From an uncultured Candidatus Saccharibacteria bacterium (GTDB taxonomy: Bacteria; Patescibacteriota; JAUYIX01; CAYMIK01): DNA of 64,000 nucleotides. Each line of letters opens with the position of its first letter. Within the stretch, counting starts at the first letter, position 1. Shown piece by piece: positions 5,088 to 62,282 of the stretch. Location of the stretch: assembly GCA_964390745.1 (NCBI GenBank), contig CAYMIK010000002.1:26866-90865 (forward strand). The letters run 5' to 3'. Below the pieces are notes generated by a model. That model did not search any database. It saw only the letters and a list, made by a program, of their open reading frames with translations, and had not been told where the DNA came from. The translations under genes were made by a program, and so were the position numbers.

Positions 5088-5858
5088 ATGAAACGAAAAA
5101 TGTTCTCCTGGCAGAATTTACTCGTAGTTCTGGGAATTCTCGTGCCCGAAGGACTCCTTTTTTGGTATGCAGACAAAGGTACTACGAGCATATTTTTGCT
5201 TGCTGGTCTGGTGTTTGGATGGAACTTTGTCTTCTTAGCCGTACGTTTTTTCGCGGTTCGTTTTATCTTCGACAAAAAAGAAAAGTTTTGGACGCATGTC
5301 CTTACCATGTTTCTTACTTCGAACTATCTTTTCTTTGGTTTTGGAACCTGGATCTTTGTTGATACGGACTCCATAACCTACCGCGTCCTGCCATTTGCCT
5401 TGCTTGCGCTCTATGCTGTGGTGTGGCTTTCGCAAAACTCTGTATTTTGGGAAGTTTTTACCTTTGTTGCGCTCGCACTCAGTATGGTGTTTTCTTGGCT
5501 CCTGGTCATTCCACTCGCGTTCTCTGGTGGGGTACTTGCAGCCATCTGCCTGTACAGCGTCTTCATTGCGGCCTACAACTGGGCCAAAATTCAAGAACTT
5601 GATATACATAACGCCCTATTTTTTGCGGCACTGACATCGCTTATTATGAGCGAAGTCAGCTGGGTGCTCCTCCTCTGGCCCATACACCTTACGAGCCTCA
5701 CAGTTATTATGTTGGGGATCTTCTTTACCTTTGGGATGCTTGTTATACGTGCGCACCACAAAAGACTGCGCTCACACCATGCGGTTTCGTACCTTGCAAC
5801 CTCGCTCTTATTTTTCGTGTTCCTTTGTATGACGAGTCAATGGAAGCCTCCCTTATAA
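5088..5858 (+). CDS. Hypothetical polytopic membrane protein
   Basis: About 8 hydrophobic helices and no catalytic motif recognised. Confidence 0.5.
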   Translation: MKRKMFSWQNLLVVLGILVPEGLLFWYADKGTTSIFLLAGLVFGWNFVFLAVRFFAVRFIFDKKEKFWTHVLTMFLTSNYLFFGFGTWIFVDTDSITYRVLPFALLALYAVVWLSQNSVFWEVFTFVALALSMVFSWLLVIPLAFSGGVLAAICLYSVFIAAYNWAKIQELDIHNALFFAALTSLIMSEVSWVLLLWPIHLTSLTVIMLGIFFTFGMLVIRAHHKRLRSHHAVSYLATSLLFFVFLCMTSQWKPPL

Positions 5859-8674: not shown

Positions 8675-8716
8675 AGCCTTTTCTTGGGAGTTGCTTGAAA
8701 CCAGAAAGCGCGTGTC

Positions 8717-8745
8717 TTGACAAAACACATAAAAAACGTTAGAGT
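8717..8745 (+). promoter_or_regulatory. Sigma70-like promoter TTGACA-17-TAGAGT
   Basis: ttgaca at 8717-8722, 17-nt spacer, tagagt at 8740-8745, about 22 nt upstream of the ATG at 8767. Confidence 0.45.
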
Positions 8746-8766
8746 TGGTTGTCAGAAAGAAACTCT

Positions 8767-9639
8767 ATGAAGCCAACACTCTTTCAAATCATCCGATCGC
8801 GCTTTGAGCACCTCGTTGTTATCTTCTTAACGGTGACGCTCATTGCGGTTATTATCACGATTGCCACGACTCCAAAATACGAAGGGCACTCGCGTATTCT
8901 TGTTATCCAAAAACAGCAATCGATCGATGCTTTTACGGCATCCAAGTCTGCTGACTACATAGCTGGCCTCTTAAATGAAGCGGTGTATTCCAAGTCATTT
9001 TTTGATTCACTCACAAAGCGCGACACGGGCCTTGCGTCACATTTTAGCAGTGACCCCGATAAGCGTTCGAAAGAATGGGCAAAGATGGTGGACTCGCGCG
9101 TGGATTCTGGAAAAGGCATCCTTGAAGTAAAGGTGTACGATGCGGACTCGAAACAAGCACAGCATGTTACTGATCTTATCGTTGCTACTCTCGTAAGTGA
9201 TGGTGCAAGCTATTACGGAGGGAGCTCGGATATTTCGATGCGTGTTATTGACGCTCCATCGGTTTCCACAAAACCGGCTCGACCATCGTTTGTATTAAAC
9301 ATCGGTGGCGGTATTTTGGTTGGCCTTGCACTTGACCTTGTGTACATTTTTATTATCGATTTGAGTTTGGCTCGAAAATTGGAAGAACGAGAGTACAATG
9401 GCCGACTTCATGAAGAAAACGAAATTCCACAAGACATTGAATTCTTGGCAGACGGTCATGTAGCCGCACAGCCGACACAACATGTTGTTTCGGAAAACTT
9501 TGAAGCACTTACTTCCCTGAAGCCATTTGCTTCAGAAGATCAGCCAATGCAAACTCCGCCTCAAGCACAAACTGTTCGTGAGGTACCTTTGCCGGATGAC
9601 GCTGCTTCGAATATTCAAAATTGGATGCGAAAAGAATAA
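8767..9639 (+). CDS. Wzz/CapA-like polysaccharide chain-length determinant (polysaccharide co-polymerase), no kinase domain
   Basis: N-terminal TM + PKYEGHSRILV Wzz signature and a C-terminal TM (LNIGGGILVGLALDLVYIFII). No Walker motifs. The ORF-track start at 8749 is TTG. Confidence 0.7.
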   Translation: MKPTLFQIIRSRFEHLVVIFLTVTLIAVIITIATTPKYEGHSRILVIQKQQSIDAFTASKSADYIAGLLNEAVYSKSFFDSLTKRDTGLASHFSSDPDKRSKEWAKMVDSRVDSGKGILEVKVYDADSKQAQHVTDLIVATLVSDGASYYGGSSDISMRVIDAPSVSTKPARPSFVLNIGGGILVGLALDLVYIFIIDLSLARKLEEREYNGRLHEENEIPQDIEFLADGHVAAQPTQHVVSENFEALTSLKPFASEDQPMQTPPQAQTVREVPLPDDAASNIQNWMRKE

Positions 9640-52975: not shown

Positions 52976-53146
52976 TTAAGCAGCAGGCTTTGCAGCACCA
53001 ATCTTGAACATCTTTGTTCCACAAACTGGGCAAACACCCTGAACTGCTGGCTTACCGTTCTTCATCTTAATTTCCTGAGGGTCTTTCATGTCGCGCTTAG
53101 ATTTGCACTTAACGCAGTACGCGGTAACTTTTACATCATCTGCCAT
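52976..53146 (-). CDS. 56-aa zinc-ribbon protein (DUF5679-like), absent from ORF track (<60 aa)
   Basis: Minus-strand translation MADDVKVTAYCVKCKSKRDMKDPQEIKMKNGKPAVQGVCPVCGTKMFKIGAAKPAAA with two CxxC pairs. A terminator lies downstream and a promoter region upstream. Confidence 0.65.
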   Translation of the reverse strand: MADDVKVTAYCVKCKSKRDMKDPQEIKMKNGKPAVQGVCPVCGTKMFKIGAAKPAA

Positions 53147-53207: not shown

Positions 53208-53669
53208 ATGTTTCGAATAATTTTAGATACGAATGTTTTACTCGATGCCGAGCGCGGATCTTTTAGCTATCCGGCAAGAATTATGCAAGAAGTGATCGAC
53301 GGAAACATCTCAGCGTTCGCCTCACATCGCACCAAGCGTGAGCACGACCTGATACGCAATCGAATCATTCGCGATCCCGAGGTTCATCAACTTATTGATG
53401 AGTACCTGGACCACGTAACCTTTGTTCGGCCAACGCAAAGAATTTCAGTTGTGTCTTCTGATCACGAAGACGACAAGTTTATTGAGGCAGCCTACGAGGC
53501 CCAGTGTGACTACATTGTGACGAGCGATCGCGATTTGCTCAATTTAAAGCAGTACGAGGAAATTGAGATTGTTACTCCGGGAGACTTTTGGAAAATCTAC
53601 GAAGATGACCGAGATCCCGAAGGAACGGGTCAGTGGCAAAATTGGATTACGGGATTTTTTCAGTCGTAA
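53208..53669 (+). CDS. PIN-domain protein (VapC-like putative ribonuclease), no adjacent antitoxin gene
   Basis: IILDTNVLLD (first acidic residue) plus DHEDDKFIE and TSDRDL acidic positions, ~150 aa. Confidence 0.75.
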   Translation: MFRIILDTNVLLDAERGSFSYPARIMQEVIDGNISAFASHRTKREHDLIRNRIIRDPEVHQLIDEYLDHVTFVRPTQRISVVSSDHEDDKFIEAAYEAQCDYIVTSDRDLLNLKQYEEIEIVTPGDFWKIYEDDRDPEGTGQWQNWITGFFQS

Positions 53670-54291
53670 CGTTTTGGATTTGCCGCTTCGCGAGCACCGC
53701 ATAGCGTTGCAATGTTGTTCCGGGTGGCCAACAGGTTATGAGAGTGAGATACTCTCCATTTTTGTTTTGATCAAGCACGGAGAGGTCATTTGGTGATATC
53801 GTCCGCGTGTCCTCGACTTCGTATCTCAGGAGCTCGCCGCTTACCCAAATAAATAGTGGGTCGCCCTTTGCAAGCCTATCAAGTAACGAGAAAACCGTTT
53901 TGTAGTTCCCTTTTTTCCAGAAGAAGTCATCTGAGTGTCCAAAAATCACCATATTCCCCTGTTCTCTCGGGTTCGCAGATCCAAACAGGTGTACGACCCC
54001 GTCTTGAAGCTGCCTGCTCATCAGAAAGATGTTTTTCGTGTCTCCTTCCTGGATGGGCGCGACCGTATAAGTCTTGGGAATGCACAGTTCGAACTCGCTG
54101 GTTTTTGGGCACATCTTTGGTACTTCGTCCGCTTGTTTCTGCGGCTGTGAGGCTGGATTCCTGGCAGTAATCTGAAAGTGGGCTTCTTGTGCAGCAAGAG
54201 GTGCAAACAAAAAGAGCGCGAAGATACCCACGACGCCTAAAAAGATGAGAAAAAATGTTTTAAGAAAATAAAAGAGTCGGGCATGATTCAT
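53647..54291 (-). CDS. Sortase-family transpeptidase
   Basis: N-terminal TM anchor, VIFGHSD (His) and LTLITC (TLxTC active-site Cys). Confidence 0.85.
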   Translation of the reverse strand: MNHARLFYFLKTFFLIFLGVVGIFALFLFAPLAAQEAHFQITARNPASQPQKQADEVPKMCPKTSEFELCIPKTYTVAPIQEGDTKNIFLMSRQLQDGVVHLFGSANPREQGNMVIFGHSDDFFWKKGNYKTVFSLLDRLAKGDPLFIWVSGELLRYEVEDTRTISPNDLSVLDQNKNGEYLTLITCWPPGTTLQRYAVLAKRQIQNVTTEKIP

Positions 54292-54314
54292 GCCCTTACG
54301 TTACACAATGATCA

Positions 54315-54926
54315 TTAACTTTTCTTTAAGGCCTCGGCGCAGTTCGTGAAAAGAATGTCTACCAGCTTTCGTACCTTTTCTTTCTCGTATCCGCTTGCCT
54401 GCACCAAGCAGCCGTGCGAAGCAATTTGTGCCTTTACTCGGCCATCGGCTTCGGTTCGTACTTCGTCGTAATCATCAGGAAGTGTGCCTTTGGCAAAGAG
54501 TTCATCGATTTTGGACGACGAAACGGTCTCGGTTACACCCGATGCGCGTATACTCACACCCACAATATTCAGGTTGGTAACTCCTTTGTCGCTATCACTT
54601 GAAAGACCAACTTCAAAATATTCTGTGGGCGGCTTAAACCGAATGACGCCGCTTGGGTCTTGTGCTGGGTATAGGCGCTTGTGCAGATCGAAGCCTGCTG
54701 CCTTGATCCAATCTTCCTTCACAAGGAAGTGGTAGTCTCGATATTCGGCCAATATCTCGCTGTCAGACTGCAAACTTGTTACTTTCACGCCCAGCGCAGC
54801 AGGCTTTGGTGGCTTGCCAGCGCGTGTATCCAAGAGAAGCCAGATGGCCAAGAGAAGCCCAAGCGAGACCAAACCAATGCCGATACCAACCAGTGTCCGA
54901 TTTTTTTGCGAAAGGAGTTTATTCAT
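54315..54926 (-). CDS. Hypothetical N-terminally anchored extracytoplasmic protein
   Basis: TM LVGIGIGLVSLGLLLAIWLLL. No motif recognised. Confidence 0.5.
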   Translation of the reverse strand: MNKLLSQKNRTLVGIGIGLVSLGLLLAIWLLLDTRAGKPPKPAALGVKVTSLQSDSEILAEYRDYHFLVKEDWIKAAGFDLHKRLYPAQDPSGVIRFKPPTEYFEVGLSSDSDKGVTNLNIVGVSIRASGVTETVSSSKIDELFAKGTLPDDYDEVRTEADGRVKAQIASHGCLVQASGYEKEKVRKLVDILFTNCAEALKKS

Positions 54927-55471
54927 TATTTCTTCAGTGGGTTATGGCCTGATTGAACTTCTTGCCCGTCGGTGTAGCCGTCATAGTCACTATCTTTTTT
55001 AGTAGGATCGGTACCGAGAACCTTTTCTCTGCCATCCGAAAGGCCGTCAGCATCGGTGTCTTTAGTAAAATCGTCGCTTGTGGAGGAAGGCGTTTGTGTG
55101 GTGTTTCCTGTGGTGCTCGTACTTCCTGCCTTGTAGCTTGACCGAGTTCCGTCTGGACGCGTCAGTGGATCATTCCCACTTTGAACTTCTTGGCCATCCG
55201 AGTATCCATCACCGTCGGTATCTGAGGCATTCATATTGGTACCAAGCTGCTGCTCAACAAGATTAACGAGCCCATCGCCATCAGAGTCTTCAATAGCGGC
55301 ATTGTGTGTATCATTCGTGCTTGTACCAAGAACTTCTGCGGGTTTTGGCGCTAAGAATGAGGCTGGAATAACACCAACTTTCTTCCCGACGCCGACAATC
55401 ACAAAAAACCCGCCGACGGCGAGAAATACAACAGTGAACCCTAAGATCAGCTTTTTGTTTTGAACGGACAT
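54926..55471 (-). CDS. Membrane-anchored protein with thrombospondin-type-3-like Ca-binding repeats
   Basis: N-terminal TM. Repeats DSDGDGLVN..., DTDGDGYSDGQEVQSGNDPL, DTDADGLSDG, DSDYDGYTDGQEVQSGHNPL (DxDxDG pattern). Confidence 0.65.
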   Translation of the reverse strand: MSVQNKKLILGFTVVFLAVGGFFVIVGVGKKVGVIPASFLAPKPAEVLGTSTNDTHNAAIEDSDGDGLVNLVEQQLGTNMNASDTDGDGYSDGQEVQSGNDPLTRPDGTRSSYKAGSTSTTGNTTQTPSSTSDDFTKDTDADGLSDGREKVLGTDPTKKDSDYDGYTDGQEVQSGHNPLKK

Positions 55472-55472
55472 T

Positions 55473-55922
55473 TTATGAGTATGTTACTACACGTATTGTA
55501 TCGAAATTTTTGGCTTCCTTCAACCCTTCCATTTTGAGTTCATGATATGGGCGCAACCTGAGTTCTTTCTGAAATGCCTTTGCGTGTGGAATGTATTTTG
55601 TCACTTCTGCCCAAAACTGTGCGCTGTGGTTCATGTGACGAAGATGACAAAGCTCATGCATAATGACATAGTCACGAAGTTCTTGCCGTAAAAAAATGAG
55701 CTTGGCATTGAGGTTGATGTTGTTATTTGCGGAGCAACTTCCCCATCGAGTTTTTTGGTGTTTCACAAAAATCTTTCTGACCGAAAAGTTGTATGCATTC
55801 GCAAGTTCACGAGTTCGCGCAACAAGAATCCTACGCGCCTCTTTGTGATACGCGGGAAGTTTGCTTCGTCGTTTTACTTTGCGACGCTTTCTTCTGGGGA
55901 CAAAAAAGTACCAGCTGCTCAT
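55473..55922 (-). CDS. YgjP/DUF45-family zinc metallohydrolase (M48-like, HExxH)
   Basis: WGSCSANNNINLN...YVIMHELCHLRHMNHSAQFW. Confidence 0.8.
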   Translation of the reverse strand: MSSWYFFVPRRKRRKVKRRSKLPAYHKEARRILVARTRELANAYNFSVRKIFVKHQKTRWGSCSANNNINLNAKLIFLRQELRDYVIMHELCHLRHMNHSAQFWAEVTKYIPHAKAFQKELRLRPYHELKMEGLKEAKNFDTIRVVTYS

Positions 55923-56671
55923 CGCGCCACCTCACCTCGAGCCTTGATAAACGCACAGTAGTCACAGTTTGGTGAGGCATTGGGAATTCTTTCATCGTTG
56001 AGACAAAATGCCACTGCCTCAAGAAGCTGCGGGATCCAATAGTCGTCACCATCGTAAGGAATAAGCGTAATGTCGAATTCTATTTTTCCGTCAAACGCCT
56101 TGCGATCTTTTTTTCCGTTGCAGTACACAAAGTATCCGCGGTCATCAACCTTGTAGCCATTTTGTCGTAGTAGCCATTGGTACACTTCCATTTGGCGGCC
56201 ATAGGCTCGCCATTTTCCATCTTCAGGGTTAATCTCTCTTTCTGTGCTGGTGGATTTGTAGTCAACAACAATAAGTTTGCCTTTTGGCGTTACCCAAATG
56301 TCGTCTACGGCTCCCGTAATAACGAGGTTGGTTGCCTTGTCATGATATCGAACACCTTTAAAATTCTCTCGCCATTCATCGAGATGTTCGTGATCAAGCG
56401 GGATGGCATCAATTTCGTATTCTTCCATCAAGGGGTGCTTGGTTCCGTTTGTACGATGAATATCGAATTCTTTTTTGAGCAAGGTGTCGACAGCGGAGTT
56501 TAAGGTAAACGGAAATCCCGGTGGTCTATCTACTCCTAGGCGTCGGTCAATATAAAAACAACGCGGACATTCAAGAAAAAGTTCCAAACGCGAACGACTC
56601 AAAGCAAAAGGCTTCTTTGCCTTTGGATTGTACAAATTTTTCTTTCGATGTGGCGTGTAATATTGCGACAT
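55919..56671 (-). CDS. PD-(D/E)xK nuclease, Cas4/RecB-nuclease-domain-like with Fe-S cysteines
   Basis: N-terminal Cys (ECPRC), GAVDDIW (D), VVDYKS (D/E-x-K), RQMEVYQWLL (QxxxY), C-terminal CDYC. 4-nt overlap with the downstream ygjP-like gene. Confidence 0.75.
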   Translation of the reverse strand: MSQYYTPHRKKNLYNPKAKKPFALSRSRLELFLECPRCFYIDRRLGVDRPPGFPFTLNSAVDTLLKKEFDIHRTNGTKHPLMEEYEIDAIPLDHEHLDEWRENFKGVRYHDKATNLVITGAVDDIWVTPKGKLIVVDYKSTSTEREINPEDGKWRAYGRQMEVYQWLLRQNGYKVDDRGYFVYCNGKKDRKAFDGKIEFDITLIPYDGDDYWIPQLLEAVAFCLNDERIPNASPNCDYCAFIKARGEVAR

Positions 56672-56685
56672 GGAACTTTAGTATA

Positions 56686-57945
56686 TCACTCTTCTTCCAG
56701 ATATTTTTTCCCCAGAAGTTTTGTCGGAAGATAATCCTGCTTGGCCTCTTCTGGATCTTTATAATCAGGTGTGTACTTGTAGCCTTTATGGTAGCCAAGT
56801 TCTTTCATAAGTTTTGTTGGAGCGTTTCTAATGTGCAATGGTACAGGCAGAGCTGGCTGTTCTCGAATATCTCGTTTTACTTTTTCATATGCCTGATAGA
56901 TAGCAACGGATTTCTTCGATTTTGCCATATATACAACAGCCTGCGCTAAGTTAATAGCACACTCAGGCATGCCGTTGAACTGACACGCCTGATAGGCTGC
57001 GACAGCTTGCGGAAGTGCGAGCGAATTTGCCAGGCCAATATCCTCAGAGGCAAACTCAATGACTCTTCTGGCAACATACAATGGATCTTCACCGCCTTCT
57101 AACATGCGCCCAAGCCAGTACAGTGCAGCGTTGGCGTCACCGCCGCGCATACTCTTGTGAAGGGCAGAAATAATGTTGTAGTGCTCCTCACCTTTTTTGT
57201 CGTACAAAAGATGCGTGCGCTGTAGCGATTCTTTAATTTCTTCATTGGTGATTTTAATCTTCTTGGTCTTTGTTCCCTGTTTAGAAATAACAGCCAACTC
57301 TAAGGCGTTCAAAGCACTTCTCGCATCACCATTCACCATATTCGAAAGAAAGTCGAGTGAGTCTTCAGATATTTCTATTTTGAGTGCGCCCAATCCCCTT
57401 TCCTTATCCGAGAGCGCTCGCTCTAGCAACTTTTTAATATCTTCCGCAGAAAGTTGCTCCAAAACAAACACTCTGGCCCGTGAAAGCAAAGCAGAATTTA
57501 CCTCAAAACTTGGATTCTCTGTTGTCGCGCCAATCAATATGAGTAATCCTTGCTCAACATAGGGCAACAACGTATCTTGCTGTGCTTTGTTAAAGCGGTG
57601 GATTTCATCGACAAATAAAATAGTTCGTTTATTTTCGTTTTGCAAGAATATTTTTGCTTTATGCGCAACATCCTGAATATCTTTTTTGCCAGAGTTCGTC
57701 GCAGAGATCTCCACAAAAAACGCCTTGGTTTCATTGGCGATAATCTTTGCGAGGGTTGTCTTCCCTGTTCCTGGTGGACCCCAAAAGATCATCGAAGGAA
57801 TGTTTTCTGTTTCGATAGCGTTTCGTAAAATCTTACCTTCGCCAATGATTTGCTCCTGTCCGACATATTCACCCAAATTTAATGGACGCATGCGGTCGGC
57901 AAGCGGTTTCGGCAAATGCAAGTTATCCACAATGAGTGTTTCCAT
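56686..57945 (-). CDS. rarA: Replication-associated recombination protein A (AAA+ ATPase RarA/MgsA)
   Basis: GPPGTGKTTLAKIIA Walker A, FVDEIHRFNKAQQD Walker B/sensor, C-terminal MgsA domains. Confidence 0.92.
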   Translation of the reverse strand: METLIVDNLHLPKPLADRMRPLNLGEYVGQEQIIGEGKILRNAIETENIPSMIFWGPPGTGKTTLAKIIANETKAFFVEISATNSGKKDIQDVAHKAKIFLQNENKRTILFVDEIHRFNKAQQDTLLPYVEQGLLILIGATTENPSFEVNSALLSRARVFVLEQLSAEDIKKLLERALSDKERGLGALKIEISEDSLDFLSNMVNGDARSALNALELAVISKQGTKTKKIKITNEEIKESLQRTHLLYDKKGEEHYNIISALHKSMRGGDANAALYWLGRMLEGGEDPLYVARRVIEFASEDIGLANSLALPQAVAAYQACQFNGMPECAINLAQAVVYMAKSKKSVAIYQAYEKVKRDIREQPALPVPLHIRNAPTKLMKELGYHKGYKYTPDYKDPEEAKQDYLPTKLLGKKYLEEE

Positions 57946-57980
57946 GTACCCATTGTACGCCTTTTGTTCGTGTCTGTCAC

Positions 57981-60176: not shown

Positions 60177-61208
60177 TTACTGTGCCTTGTGCCCAGTCAA
60201 ATTGAGAAGATCGAGCGCTTTGTTGATCTGAGCCATGACCAAAGAGTCACTTTCGTAGCCAGATGCAACATAATTATCGATAAGTACTGATCCGTCCGTA
60301 GATGCCAGAATTTGTTTCTCTATGTTATCTATCGTAGACGATGTAAGTCCCATTCGGAATGAGTACGAAAGCCCCGTTGCGTCATTATAAAGCATCGCAA
60401 CAAACACCGGACCCAGACCCACCTCTTGCGATATGTTAGAGACCGTCCAGTATCCTCGCCAAGAGTTATCGAAGTTCTTCAGGTAGTTCACTTTCTTTAT
60501 GGTTACAGCGGCATTTTCTTTTGGAACAACGCCACCTGCTAGAATAATTGCATTCGTATCAACTTTTTGGTTGGCGTATGTCAACTTCAATGCGTCTATC
60601 GTTGCCTTGTTGTTGAGATTTGGGTCATTGGCCAAGCTCTTCGTGCTGCCAATAAATCCAGATACCCAATCATTTCCCGTCAGAGCGTTGAACTTTATGG
60701 TTGCACCATCATATGTTGTTGCAATTGGAGAATCAGCATTATACGCTTCCGTGGTATTTTCGATGGTGGCAGTATTCCAATCTTTTTGGAAGTAGAGAGA
60801 AACGCCTTTAACGGTTTGTGTGGTCACCGTACTTGGTACTGTTGGAGTTGTAACCGTGTTCGTTGTATTTGTGGTATTTGAAGTTGTATTGCTCGTATTT
60901 GCAACCGAGTTTACCGTATTGAGGGTATTGAGTTTCACCGTTGCATCTTCTTCGTCCTGACGATTGCTCAAGAAAAACCAGGCAATGCCGAGCGCAATGA
61001 GCGCAACAGCTAGAACGACAATCAAAACAATAAGAAGCTTACTCTTTTTTGGCGACCCATTCATTTGACCGGCTTGGTCAACTTGAGTGCTTTGGAGATT
61101 TGATGAATCTTGTACCATTTGTTTCTTTATTTTAGACAGGAAAAGTATAGCACAAAATACGATTTTGGGAACTTTAAAAGGGGCACTCCGAAGAGAAGCC
61201 CCTTTCAC
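60177..61208 (-). CDS. Hypothetical membrane-anchored surface protein with Thr/Asn-rich linker
   Basis: TM LLIVLIVVLAVALIALGIAWFFL and low-complexity NTSNTTSNTTNTTNTVTTPTVPSTVTT. No catalytic motif. Confidence 0.5.
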   Translation of the reverse strand: MKGASLRSAPFKVPKIVFCAILFLSKIKKQMVQDSSNLQSTQVDQAGQMNGSPKKSKLLIVLIVVLAVALIALGIAWFFLSNRQDEEDATVKLNTLNTVNSVANTSNTTSNTTNTTNTVTTPTVPSTVTTQTVKGVSLYFQKDWNTATIENTTEAYNADSPIATTYDGATIKFNALTGNDWVSGFIGSTKSLANDPNLNNKATIDALKLTYANQKVDTNAIILAGGVVPKENAAVTIKKVNYLKNFDNSWRGYWTVSNISQEVGLGPVFVAMLYNDATGLSYSFRMGLTSSTIDNIEKQILASTDGSVLIDNYVASGYESDSLVMAQINKALDLLNLTGHKAQ

Positions 61209-61326
61209 GATCCCAGATTCGGGACCGCACTGCTGTCGCGGTTGCGACTACCACCCCCTTCAACAGTCTTCAAAACCGCTCTATGTAGCGATAATCTTAG
61301 CCTCAAGGGAGCCGAAAAGATTCTGC

Positions 61327-61355
61327 TTGCCAAAACTGGCACTCTCGCCTATAAT
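61327..61355 (+). promoter_or_regulatory. Near-consensus sigma70 promoter TTGCCA-17-TATAAT, start codon 10 nt downstream (leaderless)
   Basis: ttgcca at 61327-61332, 17-nt spacer, tataat at 61350-61355, ATG at 61365. Confidence 0.55.
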
Positions 61356-61364
61356 GTGCTAACT

Positions 61365-62282
61365 ATGAAAAACGCAATAGAAATAAGATCTCTTTCGAAG
61401 ACATACCAAAACGGCGTCCATGCTTTAAAGGACGTGAACTTGGATATTCGAGAAGGTGAAATCTTTGCGCTTCTCGGTGAAAACGGCGCCGGAAAAACCA
61501 CGATGATTGGAATCATTTGTGGCATTGTTAATAAAACCGGTGGTACCGTAACCGTGATGGGCAAGGATATCGTAAAAGATTATCGCTTTACGCGAAAACA
61601 GATTGGACTCGTTCCACAAGAAATTAAGCTCGATATCTTCATGAAGGTTATCGATGCCGTTCGATTCTCTCGAGGTTACTTTGGCCTCAAGAAAGACGAA
61701 AAGAAGGTGGAAGAAGTTTTAAAAGCACTGGAACTTTGGGAACACAAAGACAAGATGGCCATGCAACTTTCTGGTGGTATGATGCGACGCCTTTTGATTG
61801 CCAAGGCACTTGTTCATGAACCAAGGATTTTGTTTTTGGACGAACCAACCGCCGGCGTTGACGTGAATTTGCGCCAAGGCATGTGGGACTACGTTCGTAA
61901 ACTCCAAAAAGAAGGCGTAACGATCATTCTCACCACGCACTATATTGAAGAAGCAGAAGAAATGGCTGACCGCATTGGTATTATTGCTGGTGGCGAACTG
62001 AAAGTAGTGGAAGAAAAGGACAAGCTTATGGAAACCTTGGGGCAAAAGAAAATGATCATGCGATTGTCACAAGCCGTAAACGAAGTTCCTTCTTCGCTTT
62101 CTCATCTCGACATCAAGCTTTCTCAAGACAAAACAAGCCTTGAATACACCTACAAAGCTGGAAATGGAAAGATCCACGATGTCTTGACAGCGCTTGCTGG
62201 ATCGAACATTCAGATTCAAGAAATTGATACGGAAGAAACCAAGCTGGAAGAAATCTTCTTGAATATTGCGAGGAAAAAATGA
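61365..62282 (+). CDS. ABC transporter ATP-binding protein (ABC-2/DrrA-like)
   Basis: GENGAGKTT Walker A, LSGGMMRRL signature, ILFLDEPTAGVD Walker B. The ORF-track extension from 61110 overlaps the divergent gene and the promoter. Confidence 0.9.
   Translation: MKNAIEIRSLSKTYQNGVHALKDVNLDIREGEIFALLGENGAGKTTMIGIICGIVNKTGGTVTVMGKDIVKDYRFTRKQIGLVPQEIKLDIFMKVIDAVRFSRGYFGLKKDEKKVEEVLKALELWEHKDKMAMQLSGGMMRRLLIAKALVHEPRILFLDEPTAGVDVNLRQGMWDYVRKLQKEGVTIILTTHYIEEAEEMADRIGIIAGGELKVVEEKDKLMETLGQKKMIMRLSQAVNEVPSSLSHLDIKLSQDKTSLEYTYKAGNGKIHDVLTALAGSNIQIQEIDTEETKLEEIFLNIARKK

Follow-up and report, generated by a model that had tools for sequence, protein, structure and literature searches.

Six tightly packed genes in a Saccharibacteria genome: probably three juxtaposed units, not one system

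Whether genes that lie head to tail on one strand work together is asked here of a block of six minus-strand genes in a 64-kb stretch of DNA from a Patescibacteria (CPR) genome, the whole of which is called the window below. The block runs from a rarA gene through a nuclease, a YgjP-like metallopeptidase and two membrane proteins to a sortase, and thus mixes DNA repair with the cell envelope. An earlier note on this DNA described six genes with gaps of 0-24 nt, a 4-nt overlap between the nuclease and YgjP genes and one position, 54926, common to the genes of the TSP3-repeat protein and of the next, 203-aa protein; it left open whether this was an operon of convenience or a real unit. The description is borne out: the ORFs lie contiguously from 53647-54291 through 56686-57945, with gaps of 14, -4, 1, -1 and 23 nt from rarA down to the sortase, and both the overlap and the shared nucleotide are read directly in the sequence. 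All six annotations hold as well, with Pfam backing the family calls and matching no family to the 203-aa protein. On the question left open, the evidence favours convenience, as the order is not kept beyond a narrow clade and a promoter-like element lies inside the block. The block is, in our judgement, probably three small units juxtaposed in a gene-dense genome rather than one system.

Packing and gene order

Tight packing is the norm in this genome, and that of the block is nothing special since the whole window shows it. Same-strand neighbours are separated by a median of 4 nt (n=48 pairs), 67% of these pairs have gaps of at most 24 nt, 48% overlap, and the coding fraction is about 0.95. 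The true co-directional run comprises ten genes, reaching 61208 and adding, upstream of rarA, genes for a SAM-methyltransferase, a NUDIX protein, Dus and a 343-aa membrane protein; the longest such runs in the window count 12, 11, 10 and 10 genes. A search for RNA genes found none. Streamlined CPR genomes have tight spacing and 4-nt overlaps by default, and in such genomes these features carry almost no information on shared function. As a system the block therefore matters little, and the side observations reported below may merit follow-up more.

Gene order in relatives, which the earlier note had proposed as a check, is lost outside a narrow clade and decays stepwise with distance. The full six-gene order is kept only in the genomes L001/L002, L003 and L088, which also keep the flanking genes (PIN, DUF5679, rhodanese, fmt, def, priA and Dus); order is thus kept only where flanks are kept, as expected from the general synteny of close relatives. 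Within this clade, an insert of 440-470 nt splits rarA from the nuclease in L003 and L088. An apparent YgjP pseudogene in L002, called as pieces of 45 and 52 aa, proved to be a gene-calling artefact, the ORF being intact in the DNA. Elsewhere, L086 and L087 have RarA followed directly by the membrane protein, and the nuclease, YgjP, TSP3 and sortase genes are absent; L089 retains only the pair of 203-aa membrane protein and sortase, behind ExoVII and ABC genes; and in L004 the nuclease sits between two aminoacyl-tRNA synthetase genes.

The wider survey consisted of single-sequence phmmer searches for neighbours (E<=1e-5), which very divergent partners may escape. At this threshold, none of 80 species-representative nuclease loci has YgjP, TSP3, the membrane protein or the sortase within 10 kb, and RarA is found at one of the 80; the commonest neighbour family shared by nuclease loci occurs at 6/76. 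Block partners such as rarA and the nuclease are likewise absent from 80/80 metagenome loci that carry YgjP relatives. In none of the genomes and loci compared was the order kept across lineages that have lost the surrounding synteny, the pattern that would mark a conserved operon. As the clade is shallow, at about six genomes, selection and recent common descent are not separable within it.

Promoter-like elements, rarA and the nuclease-YgjP pair

The first of the three units would be rarA (rarA/mgsA; 56686..57945, minus strand), which encodes a replication-associated recombination AAA+ ATPase of 419 aa. The protein has the full domain set of RarA/MgsA, a AAA+ ATPase of the WRNIP1/Mgs1 family: a AAA+ core (RuvB_N and AAA, the latter at 70.9 bits), AAA_assoc_2 (1e-29, 103 bits) and MgsA_C (2e-56, 190.8 bits). 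Its length is typical, with no notable difference from known members; it does not reach the NCBIfam PRK13341 equivalogs, since these models describe forms of about 600-736 aa. Clade relatives are 83-87% identical, and a role in fork or recombination maintenance would be expected.

This gene appears to have a promoter of its own. A sigma70-like element, GTGACA-17 nt-TACAAT (57952..57980, minus strand), is predicted here from sequence conservation: its 29 nt are 90-100% identical across the window, L001, L003 and L088, while in these genomes identity at four-fold sites of rarA is only 26-44% and the gene upstream is not the same. The element is the top minus-strand match of the promoter scan (10/12), is unique in the window and stops 6 nt before the ATG, so that a leaderless or near-leaderless rarA mRNA is predicted. 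Promoters that abut start codons, with the leaderless transcripts they suggest, may repay follow-up. A LexA/Cheo-box reading of the spacer (CGAAC...) was rejected because it offers a single half-site and no palindrome.

A candidate internal promoter precedes the nuclease gene. The extended -10 TGATATACT (56680..56688, minus strand) overlaps the rarA stop codon, 8 nt ahead of the ATG of the nuclease; in 4/4 clade genomes, L003 and L088 with their insert included, TG(A/C)TATACT precedes the nuclease start by 6-9 nt. Internal promoters had been named beforehand as evidence against a single unit. Two conserved promoter-like elements, before rarA and before the nuclease, bear on this question; generic scans for promoters and terminators yield no more sites than shuffles do. 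A transcript that reads through all six genes, or all ten of the run, may nevertheless be made. A hairpin resembling a terminator (54295-54279) was left unused, as it overlaps the start codon of the sortase gene and the scan total equals the shuffle expectation.

The nuclease, with its own putative extended -10, would head the second unit. The gene (55919..56671, minus strand) encodes a PD-(D/E)xK nuclease of the RecB/Cas4 superfamily (250 aa), an assignment on which Pfam, motifs and fold agree. PDDEXK_1 matches at 1e-16 (61.9 bits vs a cutoff of 22); the alignment shows invariant D123/D124, D137-x-K139 and Q160...Y164, together with C35, C38, C236 and C239; and the AF2 model (pLDDT 85) matches the DinG nuclease domain, RecE, AdnAB, MGME1, Cas4 and Exo5 in Foldseek at E 1e-5 to 1e-3. 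A sequence-profile search of the PDB gave no match. The protein shares PDDEXK_1, the D...D-x-K and QxxxY motifs and cysteines at both domain ends with Cas4, the AddB-AdnAB nuclease domain, Exo5 and MGME1, several of which carry an Fe-S 'iron staple', and its four invariant cysteines are candidate ligands of an Fe-S cluster. In Cas4 SSO0001 the cysteines consist of one N-terminal residue and a CxxCx5C motif, whereas those invariant here are arranged CxxC...CxxC, with a fifth nearly invariant. The protein also differs from Cas4 in falling below the TIGR00372 cutoff (27.7 bits vs 65) and in lacking a CRISPR-cas context: the window contains no cas genes and no CRISPR array, and the 80 nuclease loci reveal no recurrent neighbour.

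Homologues of this nuclease number more than 8000, the top 120 at >=60% identity. It is very strongly conserved and found throughout Patescibacteria, at 56-66% identity; such high conservation of a single gene across a phylum fits a housekeeping gene, not a patchy, fast-turnover defence gene. Its role would lie in DNA end processing, and this gene, too, may merit follow-up.

In this narrow clade only, the nuclease would be translationally coupled to the YgjP-like gene (55473..55922, minus strand), which encodes a short zinc metallopeptidase domain of YgjP-like/minigluzincin type (149 aa). The Pfam YgjP-like match is strong (2e-36, 126.2 bits vs a cutoff of 26), the HELCH motif is invariant in the clade, and clade relatives are 71-73% identical. 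The protein shares the HExxH zinc site with YgjP-like (PF01863) peptidases and with the minigluzincins proabylysin (4JIU) and projannalysin (4JIX), and resembles a minimal soluble gluzincin scaffold in size and core; it differs from YgjP-like proteins in matching the profile over its C-terminal half alone, from position 101 to 205 of 207, and in adding a conserved, strongly basic N-terminal tail. The YgjP start codon overlaps the nuclease stop as ATGA, an arrangement kept in L001, L003 and L088, and an SD-like GAGGTG/AGGAG stands upstream of it. Co-translation, which the earlier note held probable, is plausible given that overlap and motif are kept in four genomes.

The envelope proteins and the sortase

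The remaining three genes would make up the third unit, an envelope trio. The first (54926..55471, minus strand) encodes an N-terminally anchored protein of 181 aa with three bacterial TSP3 repeats of the Ca-binding type, matched by TSP3_bac (4e-24) in three stretches and visible as internal DNA repeats (D1, D3) and in the orthologue alignment (A3). The second (54315..54926, minus strand) encodes a lineage-specific, N-terminally anchored protein of 203 aa, whose alignment (A2) displays a conserved ectodomain with two invariant cysteines. This protein has no Pfam, NCBIfam or PADLOC match, and a search across 5.8 billion proteins turned up just 10 homologues; its AF2 model (pLDDT 82) has no significant fold match in the PDB.

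The third (53647..54291, minus strand) encodes a membrane-anchored sortase of 214 aa, matched by Pfam Sortase (PF04203; 3e-23, 82.5 bits vs a cutoff of 26.6) and by TIGR01076 (72 bits vs 39.35). More than half of CPR genomes are reported to encode sortases (PMC6744442). Like those of Gram-positive bacteria and CPR, this one has an N-terminal anchor and the catalytic His-Cys-Arg, the latter within GHS, LITCWPP (the TLxTC-like motif) and LxR. It differs in reaching no class model, so that it is assigned to none of classes A-F (the best score against its cutoff is that of class C, 72.3/160, followed by D at 58.7/165, E at 46.4/160 and F at 19.2/166), in its fast sequence turnover (clade orthologues are 27-41% identical, with GHS and TCWPPGTTLxR kept) and in having no adjacent substrate or pilin gene. 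The claim that the window holds no sortase substrate stands: among the ORF C-termini scanned over the 64 kb, none has an LPxTG-like motif with a hydrophobic tail. Substrates would sit elsewhere in the genome, where the enzyme would serve surface-protein handling. A PKPAxxLG motif that the TSP3 and 203-aa proteins share after their anchors was considered as a non-canonical sortase site and discarded, as it is not conserved in more distant 203-aa homologues. In L170 a sortase homologue is preceded by a 668-aa protein, which was checked as a possible substrate and has no C-terminal sorting signal. The pairing of a rapidly evolving, unclassified sortase with a clade-restricted 203-aa protein may repay follow-up.

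Other readings of the block

A single selected operon joining DNA repair to envelope remodelling would explain the tight spacing and the identical order in four genomes. We give it very little credence, as synteny is no weaker in the flanks than in the block, gene order is lost step by step with distance, and the block contains conserved promoter-like elements and insertions. Hardly more credible is a narrower version, in which RarA, the nuclease and the peptidase act in DNA-protein crosslink or stalled-fork repair; within the clade this would be a compact module, the nuclease being coupled to a basic-tailed, Wss1/SprT-like peptidase directly downstream of rarA. Several features are consistent with it: the YgjP-like protein weakly matches SprT-like (3e-4) and WLM (2e-3) profiles, its basic tail is conserved, in four genomes its start codon is coupled to the stop codon of the nuclease, rarA lies directly upstream, and in the PDB it matches proabylysin (4jiu, 1e-5), a template for modelling Wss1 and SprT, which work with a AAA+ partner (PMC4559962). 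However, these genes are neighbours in a single shallow clade only, with YgjP at 0/80 and RarA at 1/80 nuclease loci and either partner at 0/80 loci of YgjP relatives; the promoter-like elements are separate, rarA and the nuclease are split by the insert in L003 and L088, and L086 keeps RarA without nuclease or YgjP. Equally remote as the single operon is an anti-phage defence or restriction module, accessory or stand-alone, formed by the nuclease and YgjP. The earlier note had likened the two to accessory pairs near such loci, and this likeness found no support. The nuclease does match a Cas4 profile weakly (PADLOC 2.5e-9), and its neighbours elsewhere include HsdS-like and OLD/AAA-like proteins, each at 3/76 loci as read from sequence only. 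Yet the PADLOC models identified no defence system, giving weak generic Cas4 and AAA matches and none for YgjP or any member of the envelope trio; the score against the Cas4 equivalog is low; and the block has no CRISPR array, cas or restriction/modification genes, the nearby methyltransferase being a small-molecule SAM-MTase of BioC/UbiE type. The pairing itself does not recur, at 80 nuclease loci or at 80 loci of YgjP relatives, and the conservation of the nuclease across the phylum fits a housekeeping gene. Our literature search on YgjP with restriction-modification, or on Cas4-like nucleases in Patescibacteria, returned nothing relevant.

The TSP3 protein, the 203-aa protein and the sortase may also make up a true envelope module specific to this lineage, in which the 203-aa protein would be either a partner of the sortase or its non-canonical client. 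This is a less remote possibility, albeit an unlikely one, and is compatible with the reading of juxtaposed units for the other genes of the block. The genes of the 203-aa protein and the sortase stay neighbours in five genomes, at a distance of 11-60 nt, and do so even in L089 with its altered flanks on both sides; the TSP3 and 203-aa genes are spaced by -1 to 2 nt in 4/4 genomes; and each protein of the trio has an N-terminal anchor and is extracytoplasmic. Against this, the TSP3 and 203-aa proteins have no C-terminal sorting signal, L086 and L087 hold the 203-aa protein without the sortase, sortase homologues elsewhere lie in unrelated contexts, and the clade is shallow. Within the preferred reading of three juxtaposed units, two sub-pairs may still be real functional couples: nuclease and YgjP, as their ATGA overlap is strictly kept in the clade, and 203-aa membrane protein and sortase, as this pair survives the rearrangement in L089.

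Layout of the six minus-strand genes

The six minus-strand genes at 53647-57945 are best read as three separate adjacent units found together only in a narrow Patescibacteria clade, where they would be neighbours by happenstance: rarA (56686-57945); the nuclease and ygjP genes (55919-56671 and 55473-55922); and the genes for a TSP3 protein (54926-55471), a 203-aa protein (54315-54926) and a sortase (53647-54291). The ORF coordinates of the earlier note were borne out exactly, and each of its family calls agreed with Pfam where Pfam has a family: RarA/MgsA (MgsA_C, 2e-56), PDDEXK_1 for the nuclease (1e-16), YgjP-like peptidase (2e-36, covering only the C-terminal half of the profile), TSP3_bac (three repeats, 4e-24) and sortase (3e-23); the 203-aa protein has no Pfam family. 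From rarA to the sortase gene, the junctions measure 14, -4, 1, -1 and 23 nt. As previously noted, and as read from the sequence, the nuclease stop and the YgjP start have ATGA in common, and the TSP3 stop and the 203-aa protein start a single base.

This packing is not beyond what chance gives. The median gap of the 48 same-strand neighbour pairs in the window is 4 nt (67% with a gap of at most 24 nt, 48% overlapping), the coding fraction is about 95%, and four stretches of co-directional genes reach lengths of 10-12 genes. The run containing the block actually comprises 10 genes, with a SAM-methyltransferase, a NUDIX hydrolase, Dus and a 343-aa membrane protein upstream. Gene density of this degree is normal in Patescibacteria/CPR, the group to which homologue labels assign the organism. 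Taken at their longest, the ORFs of the N/T-rich 343-aa membrane protein (60177-61208, minus strand) and a divergent ABC ATPase (61110-62282, plus strand) share about 100 nt of 5' sequence; the true start of one or both is probably further downstream.

Gene order in relatives

The whole order is kept in homologous loci L001/L002, L003 and L088, whose nucleases are 82%, 73% and 71% identical to that of the window, respectively. These loci share their flanks with the window as well (PIN, DUF5679, rhodanese, fmt, def and priA to one side, Dus to the other), a case of general synteny among close relatives. In L004, where nuclease identity is 66%, two aminoacyl-tRNA synthetase genes flank the nuclease gene and no block partner is present. 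We then took one genome per species, giving 80 loci of 56-66% nuclease identity, and sought partners within 10 kb: YgjP, TSP3, 203-aa protein and sortase occurred in none of the 80 and RarA in one, and the largest family shared by nuclease neighbours was present in only 6 of 76 loci. Likewise, the other five block families are absent from 80 metagenome loci with YgjP relatives (35-58% identity), and sortase homologues of other lineages have contexts unrelated to the block.

Among 5.8 billion proteins, no more than 10 are homologous to the 203-aa protein, and this rarity makes it a clade marker. Ranked by its divergence, block contexts decay stepwise: at 59% identity (L088) the block is kept, though a further ORF of 118 aa separates rarA from the nuclease gene; at 54% (L089) only the 203-aa protein and sortase genes remain, behind ExoVII and ABC-transporter genes; at 49% (L086/L087) the 203-aa protein gene comes straight after rarA, with PIN next. 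Across the clade, the rarA/nuclease junction varies from 14 to 467 nt and YgjP/TSP3 from 1 to 95 nt, while nuclease/YgjP and TSP3/203-aa protein/sortase stay tight. A GC-rich insert between rarA and the nuclease gene (L003 2200-2666, L088 5781-6137; absent in the window and L001) holds the 118-aa ORF in L088 and a 42%-identical remnant with an N-run in L003.

Of the two readings left open by the earlier note, an operon of convenience or a real functional unit, the evidence favours convenience, the whole order being restricted to a clade with syntenic flanks. Nuclease-YgjP and 203-aa protein-sortase may each be a real lineage-specific couple, in a clade too shallow to prove selection. Overall, the block is an ordinary finding.

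Nuclease, YgjP-like protein and envelope genes

More than 8000 homologues of the nuclease were found, with identity of 60% or higher in each of the top 120; of 600 candidate stretches, 596 proved to be relatives. The nuclease occurs throughout Patescibacteria and is strikingly conserved (56-66% identity in 80 species-level genomes, loci L004-L085), without a conserved neighbour across these loci. Invariant residues are D123/D124, D137-x-K139, Q160...Y164 and C35, C38, C236 and C239, the cysteines in a CxxC...CxxC layout. Sequence-profile comparison with the PDB gave no match, whereas the AF2 model (pLDDT 85) resembles RecB-like nucleases at E 1e-5 to 1e-3 (DinG nuclease domain, RecE, AdnAB, MGME1, Cas4, Exo5); against the Cas4 family the score is 27.7, below the cutoff of 65. 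The YgjP-like protein, with a basic, conserved N-terminal tail, is similar to proabylysin, a minimal gluzincin (4jiu, 1e-5) whose scaffold served as template for Wss1 and SprT models (PMC4559962). JGI gene calls break the L002 ygjP gene (8692-9193) into 45-aa and 52-aa pieces; a pseudogene was rejected, as the DNA carries an uninterrupted ORF and the break is an annotation artefact.

The likening of nuclease and YgjP to a defence-type pair is not supported: PADLOC gave only weak generic Cas4 and AAA matches and none for YgjP, the window has no CRISPR array, tRNA or Rfam match, and no defence neighbour recurs around the YgjP relatives of the 80 metagenome loci. A lone nuclease gene that is strongly conserved across the phylum while its contexts vary is more in keeping with housekeeping DNA metabolism than with defence. 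RarA, the nuclease and a minigluzincin could also be combined into a crosslink-repair module; this finds no comparative support beyond the clade, and we consider it very improbable beside three units adjoining by happenstance.

The predicted fold of the 203-aa protein, an anchored protein with two invariant cysteines, is confident (pLDDT 82), with no significant match in the PDB. The sortase passed the general sortase model and no class model. Syntenic sortases (window 53647-54291, minus strand; L001 10400-10975; L003 5029-5619; L088 8661-9224; L089 3800-4453) are 27-41% identical against 65-87% for adjacent genes, and the clade sortases retain the catalytic His, Cys and Arg, which points to very fast evolution, under either diversifying selection or relaxed constraint. 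Over half of CPR genomes are reported to encode sortases (PMC6744442). As the earlier note stated, no substrate is evident in the window, where no ORF ends in an LPxTG-like motif plus hydrophobic segment. Nearby, a 56-aa DUF5679 zinc-ribbon protein (52976-53146, minus strand) is 93-98% identical to its clade relatives, exceeding every neighbour. Divergent to its gene is a PIN_3 toxin-like gene (53208-53669, plus strand), which has no obvious adjoining antitoxin and whose 3' end runs 23 nt into that of the sortase gene.

Promoter-like elements and start signals

Generic promoter and terminator scans of the window gave no excess over shuffles. Upstream of rarA, a 29-nt sigma70-like element (57952-57980, minus strand; GTGACA-17-TACAAT), occurring once in the window, ends 6 nt before the ATG. 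Its identity among four clade genomes (window, L001, L003, L088) is 90-100%, whereas four-fold degenerate sites of rarA reach only 26-44%, and the element is retained despite differing upstream genes (methyltransferase, Dus or NUDIX). This conservation, between genomes with saturated synonymous sites, takes in the 17-nt spacer, CGAACAAAARGCG, and that of the spacer hints at a regulator-binding site.

Before the nuclease gene, TG(A/C)TATACT stands 6-9 nt from the ATG in all four clade genomes, overlapping the stop codon of rarA in two of them (window, L001) and lying downstream of the 440-470-nt insert in L003 and L088. More generally, a -10 hexamer (at least 5/6 matches) ends 4-12 nt before the start codon in 10 of 58 window genes, against 2.6% of random positions; examples are the starts at 5088 and 2076 and, on the minus strand, 48680, 33044, 57945 and 56671. 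This sequence excess suggests that leaderless transcripts may be common in the organism. For YgjP, an SD-like GAGGTG/AGGAG lies ahead of the start, within the 3' end of the nuclease gene, and all four clade genomes keep the ATGA overlap.
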